64,000 nt of DNA from Candidatus Terraquivivens tengchongensis (GCA_023261845.1 JALNJZ010000002.1:96001-160000), one strand, 5' to 3'. Positions 26,601-64,000 are shown, numbered from the stretch's first letter. Made by a program: numbers and translations. The notes: a model not told the origin generated them from the sequence alone.

Positions 26601-27197
26601 TCAACGGTAGGATAATGGTTCGTTCAAGTCTTCGATAATTTTTTCATTCTTTAATCTTTGAGCTGCAACTTCGCTAGCTTCCATCAGTATTTTTCTAACT
26701 TCTTCATCATTAACAGTCGGCTCAACGATCGTATCGCTAACGGTTCCTATGCCGTATATGGCGTCCTCTACTGCTTCCTCTACCTCGCGTATGCTCCTCG
26801 AAGCATTTGGCAATATTCCTGAGAGCTGACCCTTAAGCTCGTCAAGCACGCCCTTGATCGGCGATATGGCCTCACGGAGCTCAGCTACATCGTTAATCGT
26901 CTGAAGCCTATTAATCAGCCCCTCGATAGAAAACTGGCTCTTCATAACAGTGCTCATCGTTTTTCTCATGTTTGATAGTTCATTTGCGTACACTATTGCC
27001 TTATCTTTTTCACTACTCATTAAAGCCTTAACACACGCCTCAAACAGTTCTCTACTCCTAGCTGAGTATTGATTTTGCCTCTGCCGGATTCTCTCGCTTA
27101 TTAGCGTAAGTTTCGTAGTAACCTCATTTAGCTTATCCCTTAGGGGTTTTGGGGGAGATTGTGGTTTTTTACGTCTGAACAAATTAATCAAGTTCAC
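26601..27197 (-). CDS. ESCRT-III / Snf7-domain protein (CdvB paralog)
   Basis: LFEACVKA...KAIVYANEL..MRK...IE....RLQTI and EEVRKILMEASEVA match archaeal CdvB-like proteins; basic amphipathic N-terminus. Confidence 0.82.
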   Translation of the reverse strand: MNLINLFRRKKPQSPPKPLRDKLNEVTTKLTLISERIRQRQNQYSARSRELFEACVKALMSSEKDKAIVYANELSNMRKTMSTVMKSQFSIEGLINRLQTINDVAELREAISPIKGVLDELKGQLSGILPNASRSIREVEEAVEDAIYGIGTVSDTIVEPTVNDEEVRKILMEASEVAAQRLKNEKIIEDLNEPLSYR

Positions 27198-48156: not shown

Positions 48157-48579
48157 TTAAATGATGGTTACGCTCTCTTCACGAAACTCCTTGTTTTTCT
48201 CATCAAAAATCCATGCAGTAACCTCTTTAGCCCCCTTATTATATATGGACACGATAAGGTAGCTCATGGAGGGCCAGGCGACTTCTGCATCGTAGGCCGA
48301 CGGTCTTGCGGGGTAGTCAGGATGGGAGTGATACACTCCGATGAGCATCAGTCCGTGCTTTTCAGCATCTTTCTCCACATTGTATATATCTAATGGGTCA
48401 ACCACATATCTCCTTCTCCTATCCCCCATGTAAACGTTTTTACTCCTGACAACTTTAGCAATAACTTTTCTTTCGTCTTCCTTTCTTCCTACCAGAAGCC
48501 CACAACACTCTTCAGGATAGGTCTCTAAAGCGTGCCTGATAACCTCATCCAGATCGGCTTTGCTTATTACGAGTGTCAA
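48157..48579 (-). CDS. JAMM/MPN+ metallopeptidase (Mec-like, M67 family)
   Basis: YPEECCGLL, GVYHSHPD.PARPS.YD. Confidence 0.9.
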   Translation of the reverse strand: MTLVISKADLDEVIRHALETYPEECCGLLVGRKEDERKVIAKVVRSKNVYMGDRRRRYVVDPLDIYNVEKDAEKHGLMLIGVYHSHPDYPARPSAYDAEVAWPSMSYLIVSIYNKGAKEVTAWIFDEKNKEFREESVTII

Positions 48580-57424: not shown

Positions 57425-57595
57425 CTACCCCTTCGGACGACCCTCAAGCTCTTTTAATGCATCCGAATTGTCCACTTCAATCACCACTGGCCCGATGTAG
57501 TCACACGAAGAGCACTGATACAACATTCCTGCATATCCGCCCAAGTATAAATTAATCCTATCGCTTTTGCAGATAGGGCATATTAGGGTTTTCAT
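57425..57595 (-). CDS. Small Zn-ribbon protein, 56 aa (absent from ORF track)
   Basis: Own translation MKTLICPICKSDRINLYLGGYAGMLYQCSSCDYIGPVVIEVDNSDALKELEGRPKG*; starts 4 nt after the Lrp stop. Confidence 0.8.
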   Translation of the reverse strand: MKTLICPICKSDRINLYLGGYAGMLYQCSSCDYIGPVVIEVDNSDALKELEGRPKG

Positions 57596-57598
57596 ACA

Positions 57599-58042
57599 TC
57601 AGAACTCCTCTTTGATCGTAAGAAATGATGCGCATGTCATGCTCTTCCCAACACCTTCAATAGCCCTGAGCTTGTCTATAACGAGCTCGCCTATCGATTG
57701 TATTGACTCCCCTCTTACCTTCAAAAGTATGTCCCACTCACCGGATATCAGATGAACCTCATGAACGTCGGGCAGTGTTGCTATATATTCACCAAGCTTT
57801 TTTTGAGAAATGTTCGCTCCTGGAAGAAAGGATATTAACACGAACGCCGTCGCTGGCTTGCCGAGCTTCGAGTAATCCGGCATTATGGTGAATTTTTTAA
57901 TTATCCCTTTACTCCTTAGCTTCTTTATCCTCTCCTGAACAGTCGTCCTCGGCATGTTGAGCTTCATTGCAAGCTCCGAGACGCTCTGGCTTGCATCCTC
58001 AATAAGCTCATTTAATATCTTCCAATCTTTTTCGTCCATCAT
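57599..58042 (-). CDS. Lrp/AsnC family transcriptional regulator
   Basis: DEKDWKILNEL..DA.QS..ELA, GIIKKFT, HLISGEWDILLKV. Confidence 0.92.
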   Translation of the reverse strand: MMDEKDWKILNELIEDASQSVSELAMKLNMPRTTVQERIKKLRSKGIIKKFTIMPDYSKLGKPATAFVLISFLPGANISQKKLGEYIATLPDVHEVHLISGEWDILLKVRGESIQSIGELVIDKLRAIEGVGKSMTCASFLTIKEEF

Positions 58043-58130
58043 GTCATTATAAAATAATGTTAACGGTTGCTTTTGGTTCTTACTCTTATGATGTTTATTC
58101 GTTAAGAACTGAATTAAAAGTAAAGGAAGT

Positions 58131-58931
58131 TTAGCTGACGCTGGAGGCCTGTGCCTCCTTCCAGATAAGTATTATTGCATACTCTCTAGGTATGCCCTTA
58201 GACTGCATAATGGTCTCTATATTCCTCTGCAAGGATTCATCAACCCTTGGGCCAAACTTCGCTCCATGCTCTTCTTTTAACTCTTCGTAGAGTTTGTCAG
58301 CAAGCTCGGTGTACGTTGTTAAAGAATAAATTTTTTTCGGCAACTCAGAAATCGTTCTAGCCATTTCTTCCAGTTCTCTAATCTTCTTTTTCTTCTCAGA
58401 AAGTTCTTGCCTAAGGATTGTGACCTTTGCCTCTAAGCTTGCTTTAAGCTCTTGAGGCACGGACACGTTCGAGCTTTCCTTATATTTCAGCGTATCTAAC
58501 TCAACGATCGAGATACATAATTCCGTCTCAATATTCGAAAATTCAGTCTCCAATTTGCTCTTAGCCGCATTAATTTTTTCAACTAAAGACGCCGACTCAC
58601 CAACTATTTGCTCCCTCATCGCGTTCCATCTTGCCAAAACCTCTCTAATGGTTGCAATACTGATGTCCTGTTCCAGAAGCATCTTTTGGAATATTTGCTC
58701 CCGTATCTTTACTTCTTGTATCTTTGACATGAGAGCGTCATACCTATCAAAAGCTTCTTTAACTATTGAAACCTCAAGGTCCTTAGGTGGTACGATACTC
58801 TCAGGTGGTTTTTCTTGCAACTTTGCTTCTGTTTCTATAGTGCTTACTTCAGGCTCTAGCTGAGGAACTTCCTCTACTATGTCCTTCGGCATTTTTTCTT
58901 CTTTAAACTTTATAACTATCTTTTTTGGCAT
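58131..58931 (-). CDS. Coiled-coil hypothetical protein (weak CdvA-like coil pattern)
   Basis: Acidic/Pro-rich N-terminus then long heptad helices; co-oriented just downstream of the JAMM gene. Confidence 0.7.
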   Translation of the reverse strand: MPKKIVIKFKEEKMPKDIVEEVPQLEPEVSTIETEAKLQEKPPESIVPPKDLEVSIVKEAFDRYDALMSKIQEVKIREQIFQKMLLEQDISIATIREVLARWNAMREQIVGESASLVEKINAAKSKLETEFSNIETELCISIVELDTLKYKESSNVSVPQELKASLEAKVTILRQELSEKKKKIRELEEMARTISELPKKIYSLTTYTELADKLYEELKEEHGAKFGPRVDESLQRNIETIMQSKGIPREYAIILIWKEAQASSVS

Positions 58932-58981
58932 TATAGAACCTCCCAATCAAATCCCAGTTTTTTAAGAATCCACATATAATT

Positions 58982-59611
58982 TCATCCCTTCTTATTTGGT
59001 AGAAGTTTCTTGGTTTTGCTAAAAAACTTTACTATAGAGTCAATATCAAGCATTTTGGTGGTGCTGCCCTTCGCATCTTCGTTAGTAGCGGGTTTTTTGG
59101 GAATCAAATCAATCATTTGGAGACCGATTAGTGTGCTTTCAAGGACTTTATGCCGCTGTAAACCGAGTGTGAACCTTACGGGCACAACTTTTTCATTTTT
59201 ATCTATTCTAAATACGCCGATCTTGAGGTCCGAAACTTTCCAGCTGGCACTAAATTGCACAGGGTCTATGACCAACGCTATGGCCTTAGGAAACATAGCC
59301 TGGTAGGCTTTTTGTGTCTCAATATCTATGGGTGACATAAAGACGTTTAAACCGGGATGCGAATGGTACCAGCCAACTATATACAGGTCTGGAATATTCT
59401 CTACCAAGACTTCGGCAACCAGGGCCATAACGCTCTCCTCAAGCTTAACGTATGCGGGTGAGCTTTGTTGAAGACCCGTAACAGCATCCCAGACTTCAAC
59501 AACGTCCGATACGACTTTTCCTACCATTAACCCTGCGACTTCTTGATTAAGGTTGCTAATGGAGTGATGAAGTATCTTACCAAGAGCTAAGGGATAAATA
59601 CGTGCCCTCAT
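58982..59611 (-). CDS. Rpn11-like JAMM/MPN+ deubiquitinase
   Basis: EVAGLMVG, IVGWYHSHPGL.VFMS.IDI.TQ, ALVIDP; divergent from ubiquitin as in Caldiarchaeum subterraneum. Confidence 0.92.
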   Translation of the reverse strand: MRARIYPLALGKILHHSISNLNQEVAGLMVGKVVSDVVEVWDAVTGLQQSSPAYVKLEESVMALVAEVLVENIPDLYIVGWYHSHPGLNVFMSPIDIETQKAYQAMFPKAIALVIDPVQFSASWKVSDLKIGVFRIDKNEKVVPVRFTLGLQRHKVLESTLIGLQMIDLIPKKPATNEDAKGSTTKMLDIDSIVKFFSKTKKLLPNKKG

Positions 59612-59805
59612 GGAACCTGCATATTAATGCTTAACCATATTAATTAACGTTTGAAACGACCAATGAGGTTGCCAAATAGCCCTTAGCGTAATGCGCCCAA
59701 AATATATGGGAATTCCCGGCGTTGTTTGCACGTAACCCCCAATCGCTTTAAAAAGTTAATACTTAAATACGTTACAAGTAAAGTGCCGATGGGGGTTAAC
59801 GACTT

Positions 59806-60087
59806 ATGAAAATCAAAGTTATACCTGCGGTTGGTGGCGGTAGCCCTCTAGAATTGGAGGTATCACCAAACGCAACAATAGGGGCAGTTAAGGCGAAAAT
59901 TTGCGCGATTAAGAAACTTCCACCAGACACCACGTACCTAACCTACAAGGGTAGGGCCTTAAAAGAAACGGAAACACTCGCAAACATAGGCATATCAGAA
60001 GGCGACAAATTGGTCATCATAACGAGAACAGTGGGGGGTGACGCTTCTGGAGACCTACTCAGAATTACCCGAACCTCTGTGGAATAA
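59806..60087 (+). CDS. Eukaryote-like ubiquitin precursor (78-aa mature form ending TRTVGG plus 15-aa propeptide)
   Basis: Beta-grasp pattern; strongly resembles Caldiarchaeum ubiquitin as recalled (MKIKIVPAVGGGSPLELEV...LITRTVGG); di-Gly at 60034-60039. Confidence 0.95.
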   Translation: MKIKVIPAVGGGSPLELEVSPNATIGAVKAKICAIKKLPPDTTYLTYKGRALKETETLANIGISEGDKLVIITRTVGGDASGDLLRITRTSVE

Positions 60088-60553
60088 AAGACTGGCCGTA
60101 GAGTATAGGTTAATGCAGGAGCGTGACCCTCCGTTATTCGATATAGTTGATGGTGATCTGACACACTATACGGGCGTGATAGTAGGCTCCGGATACTACG
60201 AGGGTGGGTACTTTAAGGTAGAGATAAAAATACCAAGGGCATACCCATACGTGCCGCCTGATGTTGTCTGGCATACAAGGATATGGCATCCCAATTTCAC
60301 AGACGAAGTCCCTGCTAGGATATGCGAATCCATTTTCAAAGATGATTGGAGACCTGGATTGTACCTCGTGAACATCATCGAAGCTCTCCAAAATCTGTTA
60401 GCCAACCCAAACCCGGATGATCCGCTCAATTCGATAGCCGCTTATGAAATGAAGTATAGACCTGATGTTTTTTTAAATAGGGTTAGGTACTACATACAGT
60501 TATACGCAACCCCAGAAAAGCTCTTTGAGAAAAAGTTAAAGTGGCGAATATAG
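60038..60553 (+). CDS. Ubiquitin-conjugating enzyme E2
   Basis: YEGGYF...IP..YP..PP.V...T.IWHPN...RICES (catalytic Cys)...W.P...NPNPDDPLN..AA. Confidence 0.95.
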   Translation: MTLLETYSELPEPLWNKRLAVEYRLMQERDPPLFDIVDGDLTHYTGVIVGSGYYEGGYFKVEIKIPRAYPYVPPDVVWHTRIWHPNFTDEVPARICESIFKDDWRPGLYLVNIIEALQNLLANPNPDDPLNSIAAYEMKYRPDVFLNRVRYYIQLYATPEKLFEKKLKWRI

Positions 60554-60713
60554 CTAAAATTTCGTTTTCCACAATCTCGTGGAGCGTAAGATACAGGAGA
60601 GTAGAATTCCTAAAATACATCTACAATGGATATGCACTAAAAGGGTTTACAAGACCCTATTCTAGAGGATAATAAACATTATTATATCGTTTTAGCAGAC
60701 TTTCGAGCTGTAA

Positions 60714-61901
60714 ATGGAGCCGTATCTGCTGGAAAGATATGATAGACAGATAAGAATCAGCGGATGGGATCAGTGGAAAGTATCGAACTCAACGGTCTTA
60801 ATAGCAGGCGTAGGCGCAACGGGTTGCGAGTTAGCAAAGAACCTTTGCCTTGCAGGAATAGGTAAGCTGATCTTAGTTGACAACGATGTGATCGAGCTCT
60901 CGAACCTTAACCGCCAAATGCTTTTTGACGATTCTGATATAGGTTCACCGAAAGCTATAATTGCCAAAGAGAAGCTCCAGAAGATAAACCCCTATGTTAA
61001 GGTTGATGCTTACTATGAGGACATAAGAAAGTTTGACGAATCTATGTTAAAGAACGTGGATGTGTTTTGTTCTTGTCTAGACAACTGGGCAACGAGAAGG
61101 TGGCTCAACTCGCTTGCCGTCGAGCTTAAGAAACCACTCGTGGATACAGCGATCGAAGGTCTTTATGGGAATGTACAGGTTGTAATACCAGGAGAAACCG
61201 CATGTCTTGAATGTCATGGTGATGCCTTAATCCCTAAGGACACACAATTGGCTGAATGTACACTTAGAAGGCGTAAGCCAGAGGACTTGGCTGAGGACTT
61301 AAGGAAAAACAAAATCGAGATGCCCTTTGAACTTGTTAAAGAGCTGTTCTCTATGGGTATAAAAACGATTTATGACCTGAAATATACGCCAATAGAAAGG
61401 TTTCAAAAAGAAGGTAGTAAGATTTCCGAGGAGATACTCAGGATAAGGGATCTTCTAAAGCCCAAGCTACCGGCAATTCAAGGAGGAGCATCGGTCATAG
61501 CAGGTGTGGCATCTTTAGAGGTACTGAAAATAATACATGGTGGAAGCATTGGAAAGGTAGCGAAGCACCTAATAGTCTACGATGGCGTATCACAAAGGTT
61601 AACTAAGGTCACTCTAAAAAGAAGAGAAGACTGCTTTGTTTGTGGCGATATTATGCAAGGAAAACCAATCGAGATAACGGTTAGTCCTGACGACTATATA
61701 TGGAACTTAAAGGAAAAGATAAGTACGTTATTCAGCATACCAGATCCCGAAATCCAGTATAAAAAGTGGATATTAAAAGACGAACAAAAGTTATCGGAGA
61801 TAAACATTAAAAGCGACGACATACTATATATCCACACGAGTAGGCGGTACGTGCCAATACCCATAAAGGTGAGCCTTATTGAAAATAGTAGTGGGACATG
61901 A
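60714..61901 (+). CDS. Ubiquitin-activating enzyme E1 with C-terminal ubiquitin-fold domain
   Basis: RYDRQIR, GVGATGCE, D.DVIELSNLNRQ, CLDN, CLEC, AECT (likely catalytic Cys), CFVC, then a Ubl-like ITVSPDDYIWNLKEKI...L.EINIK..D. Confidence 0.95.
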   Translation: MEPYLLERYDRQIRISGWDQWKVSNSTVLIAGVGATGCELAKNLCLAGIGKLILVDNDVIELSNLNRQMLFDDSDIGSPKAIIAKEKLQKINPYVKVDAYYEDIRKFDESMLKNVDVFCSCLDNWATRRWLNSLAVELKKPLVDTAIEGLYGNVQVVIPGETACLECHGDALIPKDTQLAECTLRRRKPEDLAEDLRKNKIEMPFELVKELFSMGIKTIYDLKYTPIERFQKEGSKISEEILRIRDLLKPKLPAIQGGASVIAGVASLEVLKIIHGGSIGKVAKHLIVYDGVSQRLTKVTLKRREDCFVCGDIMQGKPIEITVSPDDYIWNLKEKISTLFSIPDPEIQYKKWILKDEQKLSEINIKSDDILYIHTSRRYVPIPIKVSLIENSSGT

Positions 61902-62109
61902 GGTTTGTGTGGGCAAGTGGATCTGGACAAAGGTTAAGACTGTGAATAGGGTGTGCCCGGTTTGCACTTCCGAAATTGATGAAGGTGCGGCTACAACAAC
62001 GTGCCCCCATTGTGGTTCCGTGGGTCATAAGGCGTGTTTTGATAGTTGGTTAAGTATAAGGAATGCGTGCCCGATATGTAAGAGACCAGTATTGGAGATG
62101 GTGTTATGA
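61879..62109 (+). CDS. Small RING-finger protein (E3, srfp-like)
   Basis: CPVC-x12-CPHC-x4-H-x2-C-x3-W-x6-CPIC. Confidence 0.9.
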   Translation: MKIVVGHEVCVGKWIWTKVKTVNRVCPVCTSEIDEGAATTTCPHCGSVGHKACFDSWLSIRNACPICKRPVLEMVL

Positions 62110-62417
62110 GCGAGGAAGAAGAGTTTGTAATAGATCTCGAGTATGTCGATACGCCTAGCGGAAAAGTGGCATCACTCAACACCGTCAAGAAATTGGCTGA
62201 AGCAATTTCTATAGTTCACGAAGAAGCTGAAAAACTATCAACCAAAGTCCTTTCTCTCGAAAGTAAAATACCTGGTGCTGATTTATTAAATAGGTTAGAG
62301 AGTAGGTTAGCGGCTTTGGAGAAGGGCCAAGATCAGATACTTGCACATATAGACTCGTTAATAGAGGCCTTTAACAGTCTCATAGAAACTTTAGAGAAAA
62401 CATTGAGAAAGGATTAA
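62106..62417 (+). CDS. Small coiled-coil hypothetical protein, coupled to the RING gene
   Basis: ATGA overlap with the RING stop; heptad helices after an acidic N-terminus. Confidence 0.75.
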   Translation: MSEEEEFVIDLEYVDTPSGKVASLNTVKKLAEAISIVHEEAEKLSTKVLSLESKIPGADLLNRLESRLAALEKGQDQILAHIDSLIEAFNSLIETLEKTLRKD

Positions 62418-63253
62418 GGAGTAAGTATAGCTTTCCTGAATTCTCCTACCAACTTCTCCAGACTCGCCTTCCGCTCCGTAAGCTCGTTTATATCGTTTAA
62501 CAGCTCTGCTTTCTTTACCTCTAACCTAGAAATTTCTTCGCTCATCTCCCGCATCCTATTTTCTAACTCACGTGTCATCTCTTCGCGCTCCTTTATTTTC
62601 ATAAGAGCGTCCGATAACTCCCTCTCCCTTTTTGCGATCCTTTCAAGTCTTATCTCTTTTAGCTTAAACATGCGGTTTATCTTATTTACCTCTTCGTCAA
62701 TCTTATGTAGCATTCCCTCTAACGATACCAAGTAACGCTGGGATAGGTCTTTAAGTTCCGCCTCTATTCTGTTTTTCTTCTCTTCGAGCTCCCTAACATA
62801 CGCGTCAAAGTTTGATAATTTATGCTCCTTCTCTTCAAGGTCCGCCTTCCACTTCTTCAACTCGTTTTTGAGAATCTCGAGCTCACTCTTTTCTTTAATT
62901 AACTTCTCTACATCTTCTCTAAGCATTGCTCTTTCTCGTGAGAGCAGCTCTAAAACATCATTAAGACCTTCTTTGATGGAATCGAACCATTCTTTATATT
63001 CCTTTATAACTTTCAACTCCTTAACGATACTTTCTGCGCTTTCTGCTGCTTCGCTTACTCTTGCTAAGAATTCCTCCGGGAATGTTCTTTCTCGTGAAAG
63101 TTCCTTAACATTTTCTGAAATTTCGATAAGTGTTCTCTCAAGCGAACTAACCCTTCTATCCATTTTCTCTTCGAGTTGGAGCCTAAGTTCCTCTAACTCT
63201 CTTCTAAACTCATTAAGGATCTCTTCTTTGGACTTTCCTCCAAGAAAACCCAT
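62414..63253 (-). CDS. Long coiled-coil hypothetical protein
   Basis: E/K/R/L-rich heptads over nearly all 279 aa; N-terminal MGFLGGKSK. Confidence 0.8.
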   Translation of the reverse strand: MGFLGGKSKEEILNEFRRELEELRLQLEEKMDRRVSSLERTLIEISENVKELSRERTFPEEFLARVSEAAESAESIVKELKVIKEYKEWFDSIKEGLNDVLELLSRERAMLREDVEKLIKEKSELEILKNELKKWKADLEEKEHKLSNFDAYVRELEEKKNRIEAELKDLSQRYLVSLEGMLHKIDEEVNKINRMFKLKEIRLERIAKRERELSDALMKIKEREEMTRELENRMREMSEEISRLEVKKAELLNDINELTERKASLEKLVGEFRKAILTP

Positions 63254-63387
63254 TTTGGTTCACGAAAGTTTGTATAAAGCTCATATAAAAGCATACAGGG
63301 CATAAGCGAGGGTTAATTTTAAAATTAAGGTTACAATTAAAATATTTAATAAACAAGAAAAACTAACAAGAAGGTTGAGTGGTGGGT

Positions 63388-64000
63388 TTGGCGGTTTCAT
63401 CCCAAGCAGTATTGGGGCGGTTTTTTAAGCTAGCGTTGATTGTGACAGGAATAGGTGCGATCCATATCCTCACGCTATTCATGTCTTGGTACACGGTCGT
63501 GTCAGATACGATAACCACAACCACCATACAGGGATATGCCATCGCTGAGTCTCTTTACATGTCAATCGCAGGGGGTATAGTTTGCGGAATTGCTCTTATA
63601 CTGTCCTCCACTTCATCGAATATAATAACTGCGAAGTGGCTCGTCGGAGCTACTGCACTTGTCGGAGCTCTTCTCGCAATAACATCACCAGCTTATACGC
63701 ACTTCATAGTAATACCTGCGCTACAGGCAAAGGGGTATTTAGAAATAGGAATATTCATGTCATACTTTTCAGCAATAGCGATGTTTGTCCCTGCCGCCAC
63801 TATAATAGCAACACCCATTAGGGTCGAAGTAGCACCTCACGTCGGGCCTCCTTATCTTGGGACTTCAGCCCCGATTGTTGAGGAAGCTGTTGAACTGACA
63901 CATGTAATCGATATACCTCCCGGTGCTATTTGCGGGATATGTTACCAAGAATTGGACCCAGAAACCACCATGATGTGTAGCAATTGCCAGACGATGTTTC
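63388..64000 (+). CDS. Four-TM membrane protein with C-terminal RING-type Zn finger (3'-truncated; absent from ORF track)
   Basis: Open frame from TTG 63388 (after GGTGGG) to window end, 204 codons: four hydrophobic segments, Pro-rich linker, then CGICYQELDPETTMMCSNCQTMF; the next codon begins with C, compatible with His. Confidence 0.8.
   Translation, partial: MAVSSQAVLGRFFKLALIVTGIGAIHILTLFMSWYTVVSDTITTTTIQGYAIAESLYMSIAGGIVCGIALILSSTSSNIITAKWLVGATALVGALLAITSPAYTHFIVIPALQAKGYLEIGIFMSYFSAIAMFVPAATIIATPIRVEVAPHVGPPYLGTSAPIVEEAVELTHVIDIPPGAICGICYQELDPETTMMCSNCQTMF

Follow-up and report, generated by a model that had tools for sequence, protein, structure and literature searches.

Organization of the locus

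The window analyzed here is a stretch of 64,000 nucleotides from Candidatus Terraquivivens tengchongensis (G000:C2:96001-160000), an archaeon with a genome of 1.22 Mb that is 99% complete. Five adjacent genes at positions 58982-62109 encode the components of a eukaryote-like ubiquitin cascade. An Rpn11-like JAMM metalloprotease of 209 residues lies on the minus strand (58982-59611; Pfam JAB, 70.9 bits), and an A+T-rich divergent intergenic region of 194 bp (59612-59805) separates it from four genes on the plus strand. The first two of these overlap and code for pro-ubiquitin (93 residues; 59806-60087; Pfam ubiquitin, 47.0 bits) and an E2 ubiquitin-conjugating enzyme (171 residues; 60038-60553; Pfam UQ_con, 98.0 bits). 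After an A+T-rich spacer of 160 bp (60554-60713) follow an E1 ubiquitin-activating enzyme of 395 residues (60714-61901; Pfam ThiF, 211.1 bits, and ubiquitin, 30.9 bits) and srfp, a small RING finger protein of 76 residues (61879-62109; Pfam zf-RING_2, 41.0 bits). The curated Pfam cut-offs are 22.5 bits for JAB, 25.4 for ubiquitin, 27 for UQ_con, 28.1 for ThiF and 27.3 for zf-RING_2. Five matches in a row, all above threshold and to the same pathway, far exceed what chance would give.

The preliminary description of this stretch had claimed a complete cascade with intact catalytic motifs, a JAMM gene divergent from the ubiquitin-E2-E1-RING genes and the organization reported for Caldiarchaeum subterraneum. 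The open reading frames (ORFs) match the ends that it had given exactly, all five proteins score above their cut-offs and all catalytic residues are present. The ORF coordinates bear out the divergent arrangement, and the published gene order, together with the close relatedness of the JAMM protein and ubiquitin to CsRpn11 and CsUb of C. subterraneum, supports the type of organization. For the comparisons below, orthologues were taken from 20 loci of related genomes and aligned; several of the misses in the 20-locus counts fall at contig or locus ends.

JAMM protease and pro-ubiquitin

Residues Glu24, His83-x-His85, Ser93 and Asp96 of the JAMM protein are constant in all 19 aligned sequences. 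The protein matches CsRpn11 (PDB entry 6FJU) over residues 1-170 with an E-value of 3.9e-59, and the next group of matches is eukaryotic Rpn11, with yeast Rpn11 at 6e-19. Its predicted role is to trim the pro-ubiquitin tail and to deubiquitylate conjugates. A second JAB/MPN gene lies within an open frame of 145 residues on the minus strand at 48280-48579 (30.7 bits). It is probably the counterpart of a separate JAMM protease, of the small archaeal modifier protein (SAMP) type, which Fuchs et al. (2018) discuss.

Ubiquitin is encoded by a single free gene in the genome. The mature protein corresponds to residues 1-78 (59806-60039) and ends in TRTVGG, with Gly77-Gly78 at the C-terminus; these six residues are constant in 21 of 21 sequences. 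Over residues 1-78/79 it matches the CsUb structures 2MQJ (E-value 7.5e-39) and 6FJ7 (2.1e-38), which, like 6FJU, are C. subterraneum proteins according to Fuchs et al. (2018). Gly78 is followed by a 15-residue tail, DASGDLLRITRTSVE, at 60040-60084. The GTG start codon of E2 (60038-60040) overlays the Gly78 codon (60037-60039) in the +1 frame, and the tail is the 5' coding region of E2 read in the ubiquitin frame to the first stop. Of the 21 sequences, 8 lack the tail and 9 have one of 2-9 residues; in the four species of this genus its length is 10-20 residues. The sequence of the tail is not conserved. The pro-peptide is a by-product of the overlapping ubiquitin and E2 genes and varies from 0 to 20 residues among relatives.

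Because the arginine preceding TVGG is constant in all 21 sequences, the tryptic remnant left on modified lysines would be TVGG and not GG. A TVGG remnant was detected experimentally by Hennell James et al. (2017; PMC5654768). A di-Gly proteomics workflow would miss the conjugates, and TVGG should be searched for instead.

E2 and E1 enzymes

The E2 is the sole UQ_con match in the genome and spans model positions 1-139. His84-Pro85-Asn86 is constant in 21 of 21 sequences. The best solved relative is human UBE2K (E-value 4.2e-26), and Cys96 aligns with the active-site cysteine of UBE2K. In two other members of the genus the E2 frame is one base off relative to this genome (G005, L012 9788-10336; G006, L013 9512-10153). 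No ATG, GTG or TTG codon precedes approximately residue 26-49 in these two species, yet the N-terminal helix remains part of the frame. Translation would have to begin at a non-canonical codon, such as the CTG that aligns with Leu4 of the E2 described here, or be coupled in some way to ubiquitin translation. In five listed genomes of another genus, g9 (G034:C2:193699-193947, similarly in G057-G059 and G061), a second weak UQ_con-like match of about 31-33 bits covers model positions 47-119 within frames of 274-288 residues, and may represent an extra E2- or UEV-like protein.

The E1 contains the loop Gly32-x-Gly34-x-x-Gly37 and the conserved pairs Cys164/Cys167 and Cys307/Cys310, which form a four-cysteine zinc site. 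Cys182 lies within ECTLR, which HMMER aligns to LCTLR of yeast Uba1; we take the cysteine of the latter motif to be the catalytic cysteine of Uba1. The C-terminal ubiquitin-fold domain occupies residues 314-377 and accounts for the ubiquitin match of this protein. The nearest solved structure is yeast Uba1 (E-value 8.7e-41), followed by the NEDD8 E1 UBA3 (1e-33), ThiF (4e-28) and MoeB (9e-26).

RING finger proteins

The srfp gene begins with TTG and overlaps the 3' end of the E1 gene by 23 nt. Its eight ligands, Cys26, Cys29, Cys42, Cys45, His50, Cys53, Cys64 and Cys67, are constant in 16 of 16 full-length sequences, as are Trp57 and Pro65, and a conserved Gly12-x-Trp14 motif lies N-terminal of the RING. 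Hennell James et al. (2017; PMC5654768) class srfp as RING-H2 with a histidine as the fourth ligand, and also note an 'extra C3B'. The corresponding His44 is replaced by Phe, Tyr or Asn in 6 of 17 sequences, and Cys45 is invariant, so the RING-H2 (C3H2C3) class was rejected. With eight invariant ligands beside a replaceable His44, the alignment argues for a C4HC3 ligand set, in agreement with the RING motif written by Nunoura et al. (2011; PMC3082918).

Only two RING genes were found in the genome, srfp and a gene that starts 1.3 kb downstream of it, here called TM_RING. This protein has 231 residues and is encoded on the plus strand from 63379; the window end cuts the gene at 64000, and it runs to 64074 (L010:7379-8074). 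The AlphaFold2 (AF2) model has a mean predicted local distance difference test (pLDDT) score of 84.3 and contains helices at 8-34, 56-78, 82-115 and 123-144, which coincide in number with four hydrophobic peaks. Short outward-facing strands, a disordered linker at 151-167 and a C-terminal C4HC3 RING (C185...C225) complete the model. Since the number of helices is even, both ends of the chain should lie on one side of the membrane, and the RING, as a zinc-cysteine domain, is expected to be cytoplasmic. The zf-RING_2 match (37.8 bits) covers residues 185-226. The ligand spacing is C-x2-C-x11-C-x2-C-x4-H-x2-C-x10-C-x2-C. The eight ligands are constant in 13 of 13 sequences, and Ser-Asn-Cys stands where srfp has its position-44 histidine and Cys45. 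In eukaryotic RINGs, the hydrophobic residue after ligand 1, the helix tryptophan and the proline after ligand 7 contact E2. All three are present in TM_RING; in three sequences of family f4 the tryptophan is a tyrosine. TM_RING is a candidate for a second, membrane-anchored E3.

The membrane part of TM_RING has weak matches to claudin/TARP tetraspans in a Foldseek search, the best with an E-value of 1.4e-3. Against claudin, PMP22 and TARP the TM-scores are 0.39-0.44 by query and 0.5-0.59 by target, with root-mean-square deviations of 4.6-6.1 and no sequence similarity. Foldseek matches of the RING domain include the RINGs of RNF13, RNF165 and RNF38. A search with a profile against 1.84 billion representatives gave 13 proteins at an E-value of at most 1e-30; among the matches listed, those at the top cover the membrane part and most of those below match the RING part only. 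A word-based search found 9 close relatives, either named 'RING finger (domain-containing) protein' or unnamed.

Coiled-coil proteins encoded nearby

Three further genes flank the cascade. CC271 (271 residues; ORF at 58131-58946) lies 3' of the JAMM gene on the same, minus strand, and adjoins it in 10 of the 20 related loci; in 3 more it is found elsewhere in the locus. A K-I-V-I-K-like motif is conserved at the N-terminus of the protein and is followed by a disordered acidic linker (approximately residues 11-57) and a long helical bundle, with helices at 55-270 in the AF2 model (mean pLDDT 82.7). It matches no Pfam family at an E-value of at most 0.01, and a fold search with the model gave nothing at an E-value of at most 0.001, only generic long helical bundles.

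CC103 (103 residues; ORF at 62106-62417, plus strand) begins with an ATG that overlaps the stop codon of srfp (ATGA). A conserved N-terminal Y-x-[DE]-T-P-x-G motif, in which Thr16, Pro17 and Gly19 are constant in 15 of 15 sequences, precedes a helical region, and the protein matches no Pfam family at its cut-off. CC103 follows srfp in 14 of the 20 loci and accompanies it where srfp has left the ubiquitin-E2-E1 genes, which makes it a candidate partner of srfp. Complex prediction for the pair gave a score of 0.13 against a mark of 0.32, obtained without control runs, and speaks neither for nor against binding.

CC279 is a coiled-coil protein of 279 residues (ORF at 62414-63253, minus strand), convergent with CC103, and the 3' ends of the two genes overlap by 4 nt. 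It lies next to CC103 in 15 of the 20 loci and is present in all six rearranged loci that hold srfp. Profile searches gave only weak matches of the coiled-coil type. In the Protein Atlas it falls in a 'hypothetical protein' cluster of its own (77 members) at 0.94, with other rows at 0.86 or less. The N-terminus MGFLGGKS had suggested an ESCRT-III/Snf7 protein (ESCRT, endosomal sorting complex required for transport); this was rejected, with no Pfam Snf7 match and an hhalign probability of 0.06% against the Snf7/CdvB protein of the same genome. Kinship between CC279 and CC271 was likewise rejected (probability 4.5%).

Two Snf7/CdvB-like genes of the ESCRT-III family are located at a distance from the ubiquitin genes, one in the window at 26682-27113 on the minus strand and the other at G000:C5:57870-58361. 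A 56-residue protein encoded at 57425-57595 on the minus strand, directly downstream of an Lrp/AsnC regulator (57599-58042), carries two C-x-x-C pairs, is zinc-ribbon-like and is conserved within the genus.

Distribution and conservation of the gene block

The E2 model matches all 41 nearest genomes and 75 of the 76 genomes of the class, the single miss being a genome that is 59% complete. In a sample of the phylum it matches 45 of 45 genomes of the organism's own order versus 5 of 256 others, where the matches are partial only; the Pfam E2 model matches none of 14 control genomes. The statement that this core is known but rare stands for prokaryotes in general; within the class the E2 is near-universal. 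The five matches outside the order (G107, G135, G274, G279 and G299, from other families of the phylum) reach 59-67 bits over model positions 47-121 in frames of 185-212 residues, and represent a different E2-like type.

The order of the genes in the extended block is CC271, JAMM, ubiquitin-E2-E1-srfp, CC103, the convergent CC279 and TM_RING. JAMM lies beside ubiquitin in 18 of the 20 related loci, ubiquitin-E2-E1 are contiguous in 19, srfp follows E1 in 16, and TM_RING is present in 12. The same extended block is present in G030, a genome of family f4 that is complete on a single contig, with identities of 40-77% for the core five proteins and 32-38% for the flanking proteins. The membrane domain of TM_RING was matched in 40 of the 41 genomes of the order, and the remaining genome, G007, has a contig end at this place. 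In 34 of the 41 genomes srfp and TM_RING are found within 2.5 kb on one contig; in 4 genomes the two genes are split between contigs, in 1 they are widely separated, and in 2 only one of them was detected.

The block is broken in some of the genomes. In all four loci examined from genus g6, srfp-CC103, CC279, TM_RING and the glycyl-tRNA synthetase (GlyRS) gene are intact as a unit and detached from ubiquitin-E2-E1, and the distance, measured in G025 of this genus, is about 85 kb. In G034, srfp, CC103 and CC279 are still neighbors, and TM_RING is elsewhere with GlyRS. Two other cases may be rearrangements or assembly breaks: TM_RING of G032 is on another contig though the locus (L026) continues, and the genes of G014 (L018 and L043) are broken between E2 and E1.

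Transcription units

TATA-like boxes were read by eye in the divergent region and in the E2/E1 spacer. The divergent region contains TTTAAAAA about 55 nt before the ATG of ubiquitin and, on the other strand, TTAATTAATA about 30 nt before the ATG of the JAMM gene, and we infer promoters for ubiquitin-E2 and for JAMM. The spacer contains ATTATTATA about 35 nt before the ATG of E1, a putative internal promoter for E1-srfp-CC103. Two congeneric species carry unrelated opposite-strand genes inserted at the E2/E1 junction: G005 has a gene for a 223-residue protein (L012 8931-9788), and G006 has a permease-like gene in two parts of 322 and 159 residues (L013 10153-12159). This genus therefore requires a separate promoter for E1-srfp, and the 'operon' is not one obligatory transcript.

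Contigs of a sediment metatranscriptome (X1), all with at least 99% likeness, cover 28 of the 30 bins of 58100-64000. They come as separate pieces for CC271-JAMM, ubiquitin, E2, parts of E1, srfp-CC103-CC279 and TM_RING, with the highest word depth over srfp-CC103-CC279. Gaps or dips occur at the three intergenic regions, which are the divergent region, the E2/E1 spacer and a third putative promoter region at 63254-63378; the word depth is 2.1-2.5 in the divergent region versus 5-13 on either side, and 0 in the bin 60464-60660 at the E2/E1 spacer. This pattern fits RNA rather than DNA.

Mechanism and alternative explanations

Judged by its genes and their distribution, the cluster is very probably a working, vertically inherited, eukaryote-like ubiquitylation system of the Aigarchaeota (Caldarchaeales) type. 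Pro-ubiquitin would be made with its 15-residue tail, and the Rpn11-like JAMM protease would cleave after Gly78. The E1 would then adenylate Gly78 and load ubiquitin onto Cys182, and its C-terminal ubiquitin-fold domain would recruit the E2 for transfer of ubiquitin onto Cys96. Activation of the charged E2 by srfp would lead to transfer to substrate lysines, and the same JAMM protease could undo the modification. In a possible extension of this scheme, the cascade would serve two E3s, the soluble srfp, with CC103 and CC279, and the four-helix membrane RING protein. In its favor are the nearness of the only two RING genes of the genome, counted as 1.4 kb apart, the closeness of srfp and TM_RING in 34 of 41 genomes, their joint relocation with CC103 and CC279 in genus g6, and the intact srfp-CC103-CC279 trio of G034. 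The ubiquitin system of this class may comprise nine conserved genes with two E3s, and not just a cassette of five; this is a tentative proposal, which we regard as rather doubtful at present. If it holds, CC103, which would be translationally coupled, and CC279 may be srfp adaptors or first substrates, TM_RING may ubiquitylate membrane or envelope-associated proteins, and CC271 may act with the Rpn11-like protease. TM_RING would then be a prokaryotic forerunner of the eukaryotic membrane-embedded RING ligases.

Several points weigh against these interpretations. Every enzymatic step proposed for this organism is extrapolated from C. subterraneum by orthology. The X1 contigs come from a single run and reveal nothing of strand or of transcript ends; carry-over of DNA is also possible, so the RNA evidence is weak; of the raw-read metatranscriptomes, X2 and X3 gave 0 reads and are no test, and X4 gave 8, too few for strand or ends. 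As for the extension, CC271, CC103 and CC279 match no recognizable family or fold, and the linkage of TM_RING may be plain synteny. The block also holds GlyRS, a PhoU-like gene and the tRNA-splicing endonuclease EndA, and because these housekeeping genes share it, conserved order is weak evidence, most of all for TM_RING.

The alternative that survives best accepts the core five genes as a ubiquitin cascade and takes CC271, CC103, CC279 and TM_RING for unrelated neighbors kept in place by slow rearrangement. We consider this a realistic possibility, though one short of even odds. It is favored by the run of the conserved block into the housekeeping genes and by the coiled-coil proteins without a family match, as well as by G034, where TM_RING parts from srfp and stays beside GlyRS as the block breaks. 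However, TM_RING shares its ligand spacing with a proven E3 type, the genome, with its single E2, has no RING other than TM_RING and srfp, the trio srfp-CC103-CC279 has stayed together through two independent rearrangements, and the start of CC103 overlaps the srfp stop.

A sulfur-carrier or SAMP-type ubiquitin-like system, serving cofactor synthesis or sampylation in place of true ubiquitylation, is very improbable. The adenylation domain of the E1 does match ThiF, MoeB and SAMP-activating E1 models of NCBIfam, at 101-144 bits and far below their cut-offs. This explanation fails because an intact E2 and RING, neither of which SAMP systems need, stand beside an E1 with the Uba1-type cysteine loop and a ubiquitin-fold domain. 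In addition, the modifier has its closest relatives in CsUb and ubiquitin rather than in ThiS or MoaD, and CsRpn11 does not process SAMP precursors (Fuchs et al., 2018). A bacterial-style anti-phage conjugation system gained by transfer, similar to Cap2/Cap3 of the cyclic-oligonucleotide-based anti-phage signaling system (CBASS) or to Bil, has hardly any likelihood: its weak PADLOC matches (E1 to 'E1-E2' models at up to 69.9 bits, covering the shared adenylation domain only, and JAMM to 'JAB' at 22.5 bits) leave ubiquitin, E2 and RING without a PADLOC match, no cyclic-nucleotide synthase is encoded nearby, the cluster lies among core archaeal genes (Top6B, a KH protein, a KaiC-like gene, Lrp, GlyRS and EndA), and the presence of E2 in nearly all genomes of the class argues for vertical descent.

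Comparison with known systems

The core cascade adds one more member to a system that is known and has been reconstituted, and is nothing new in kind; the fresh point is the larger conserved block, which includes a second, membrane-anchored RING. In C. subterraneum, rpn11l lies on the reverse strand beside ubl-e2l-e1l-srfp (Nunoura et al., 2011), and the system with the same gene order was reconstituted in vitro by Hennell James et al. (2017). In that work Rpn11 removes a nine-residue pro-peptide, E1 activates the cut form only, E1 and E2 auto-ubiquitylate, and modification of a test substrate needs srfp. The same system was reported in all six Aigarchaeota bins studied by Hua et al. (2018).

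The cluster described here has the same five genes in the same order and orientation, an E1 with a C-terminal ubiquitin-like domain and a ubiquitin that ends in TRTVGG, with a tail that in C. subterraneum is removed by Rpn11. The RING ligand spacing of srfp is also the same but for one residue, x12 here versus x11. The two organisms belong to different families of the same order, and the genome of the present one is smaller. Its ubiquitin tail is longer, 15 versus 9 residues, and unrelated in sequence; its E2 has a GTG start over the Gly78 codon; and its E2 and E1 genes are set apart by the 160-bp spacer, which probably holds a promoter of its own.

Fuchs et al. (2018) name two questions as open, the native substrates and the way in which substrates are selected. 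The preliminary description had likewise regarded physiological substrates as not established, which agrees with that paper and with later work, where titles and abstract openings report no native substrates (most subscription journals lay outside this search). The conserved neighbors TM_RING, CC103, CC279 and CC271 are concrete candidates for both questions, and of the whole locus only TM_RING and the coiled-coil proteins that accompany srfp may be worth pursuing further.

RING ligases embedded in membranes are familiar from eukaryotes, such as the PA-TM-RING protein RNF13 and the MARCH and Hrd1 types. TM_RING resembles them in the predicted combination of a multi-pass membrane domain with a cytoplasmic C-terminal RING, and differs in having no sequence relation to them outside the RING. 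Archaeal RINGs have been described only as 'small RING finger proteins' in the sources compared here (Hennell James et al., 2017, Supplementary Note 6; Fuchs et al., 2018). The word 'transmembrane' is absent from the main texts of Nunoura et al. (2011) and Hennell James et al. (2017) and from the supplement of the latter, figures aside, and 'membrane' is absent from the text of Fuchs et al. (2018). Within the same literature search, no title or abstract opening described a membrane-anchored RING in Aigarchaeota or Asgard archaea.

The Asgard ubiquitin clusters likewise combine a eukaryote-like E1/E2/RING cascade with pro-ubiquitin. They are often found beside ESCRT genes, unlike the block described here, which is without ESCRT-I/II, UEV or Vps23 genes and in which CC279 is not ESCRT-III-like. 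In a Helarchaeial E3, a conserved element N-terminal of the RING recognizes the substrate (preprint 10.1101/2023.07.25.550441), and the conserved N-terminal G-x-W element of srfp parallels this pre-RING element.

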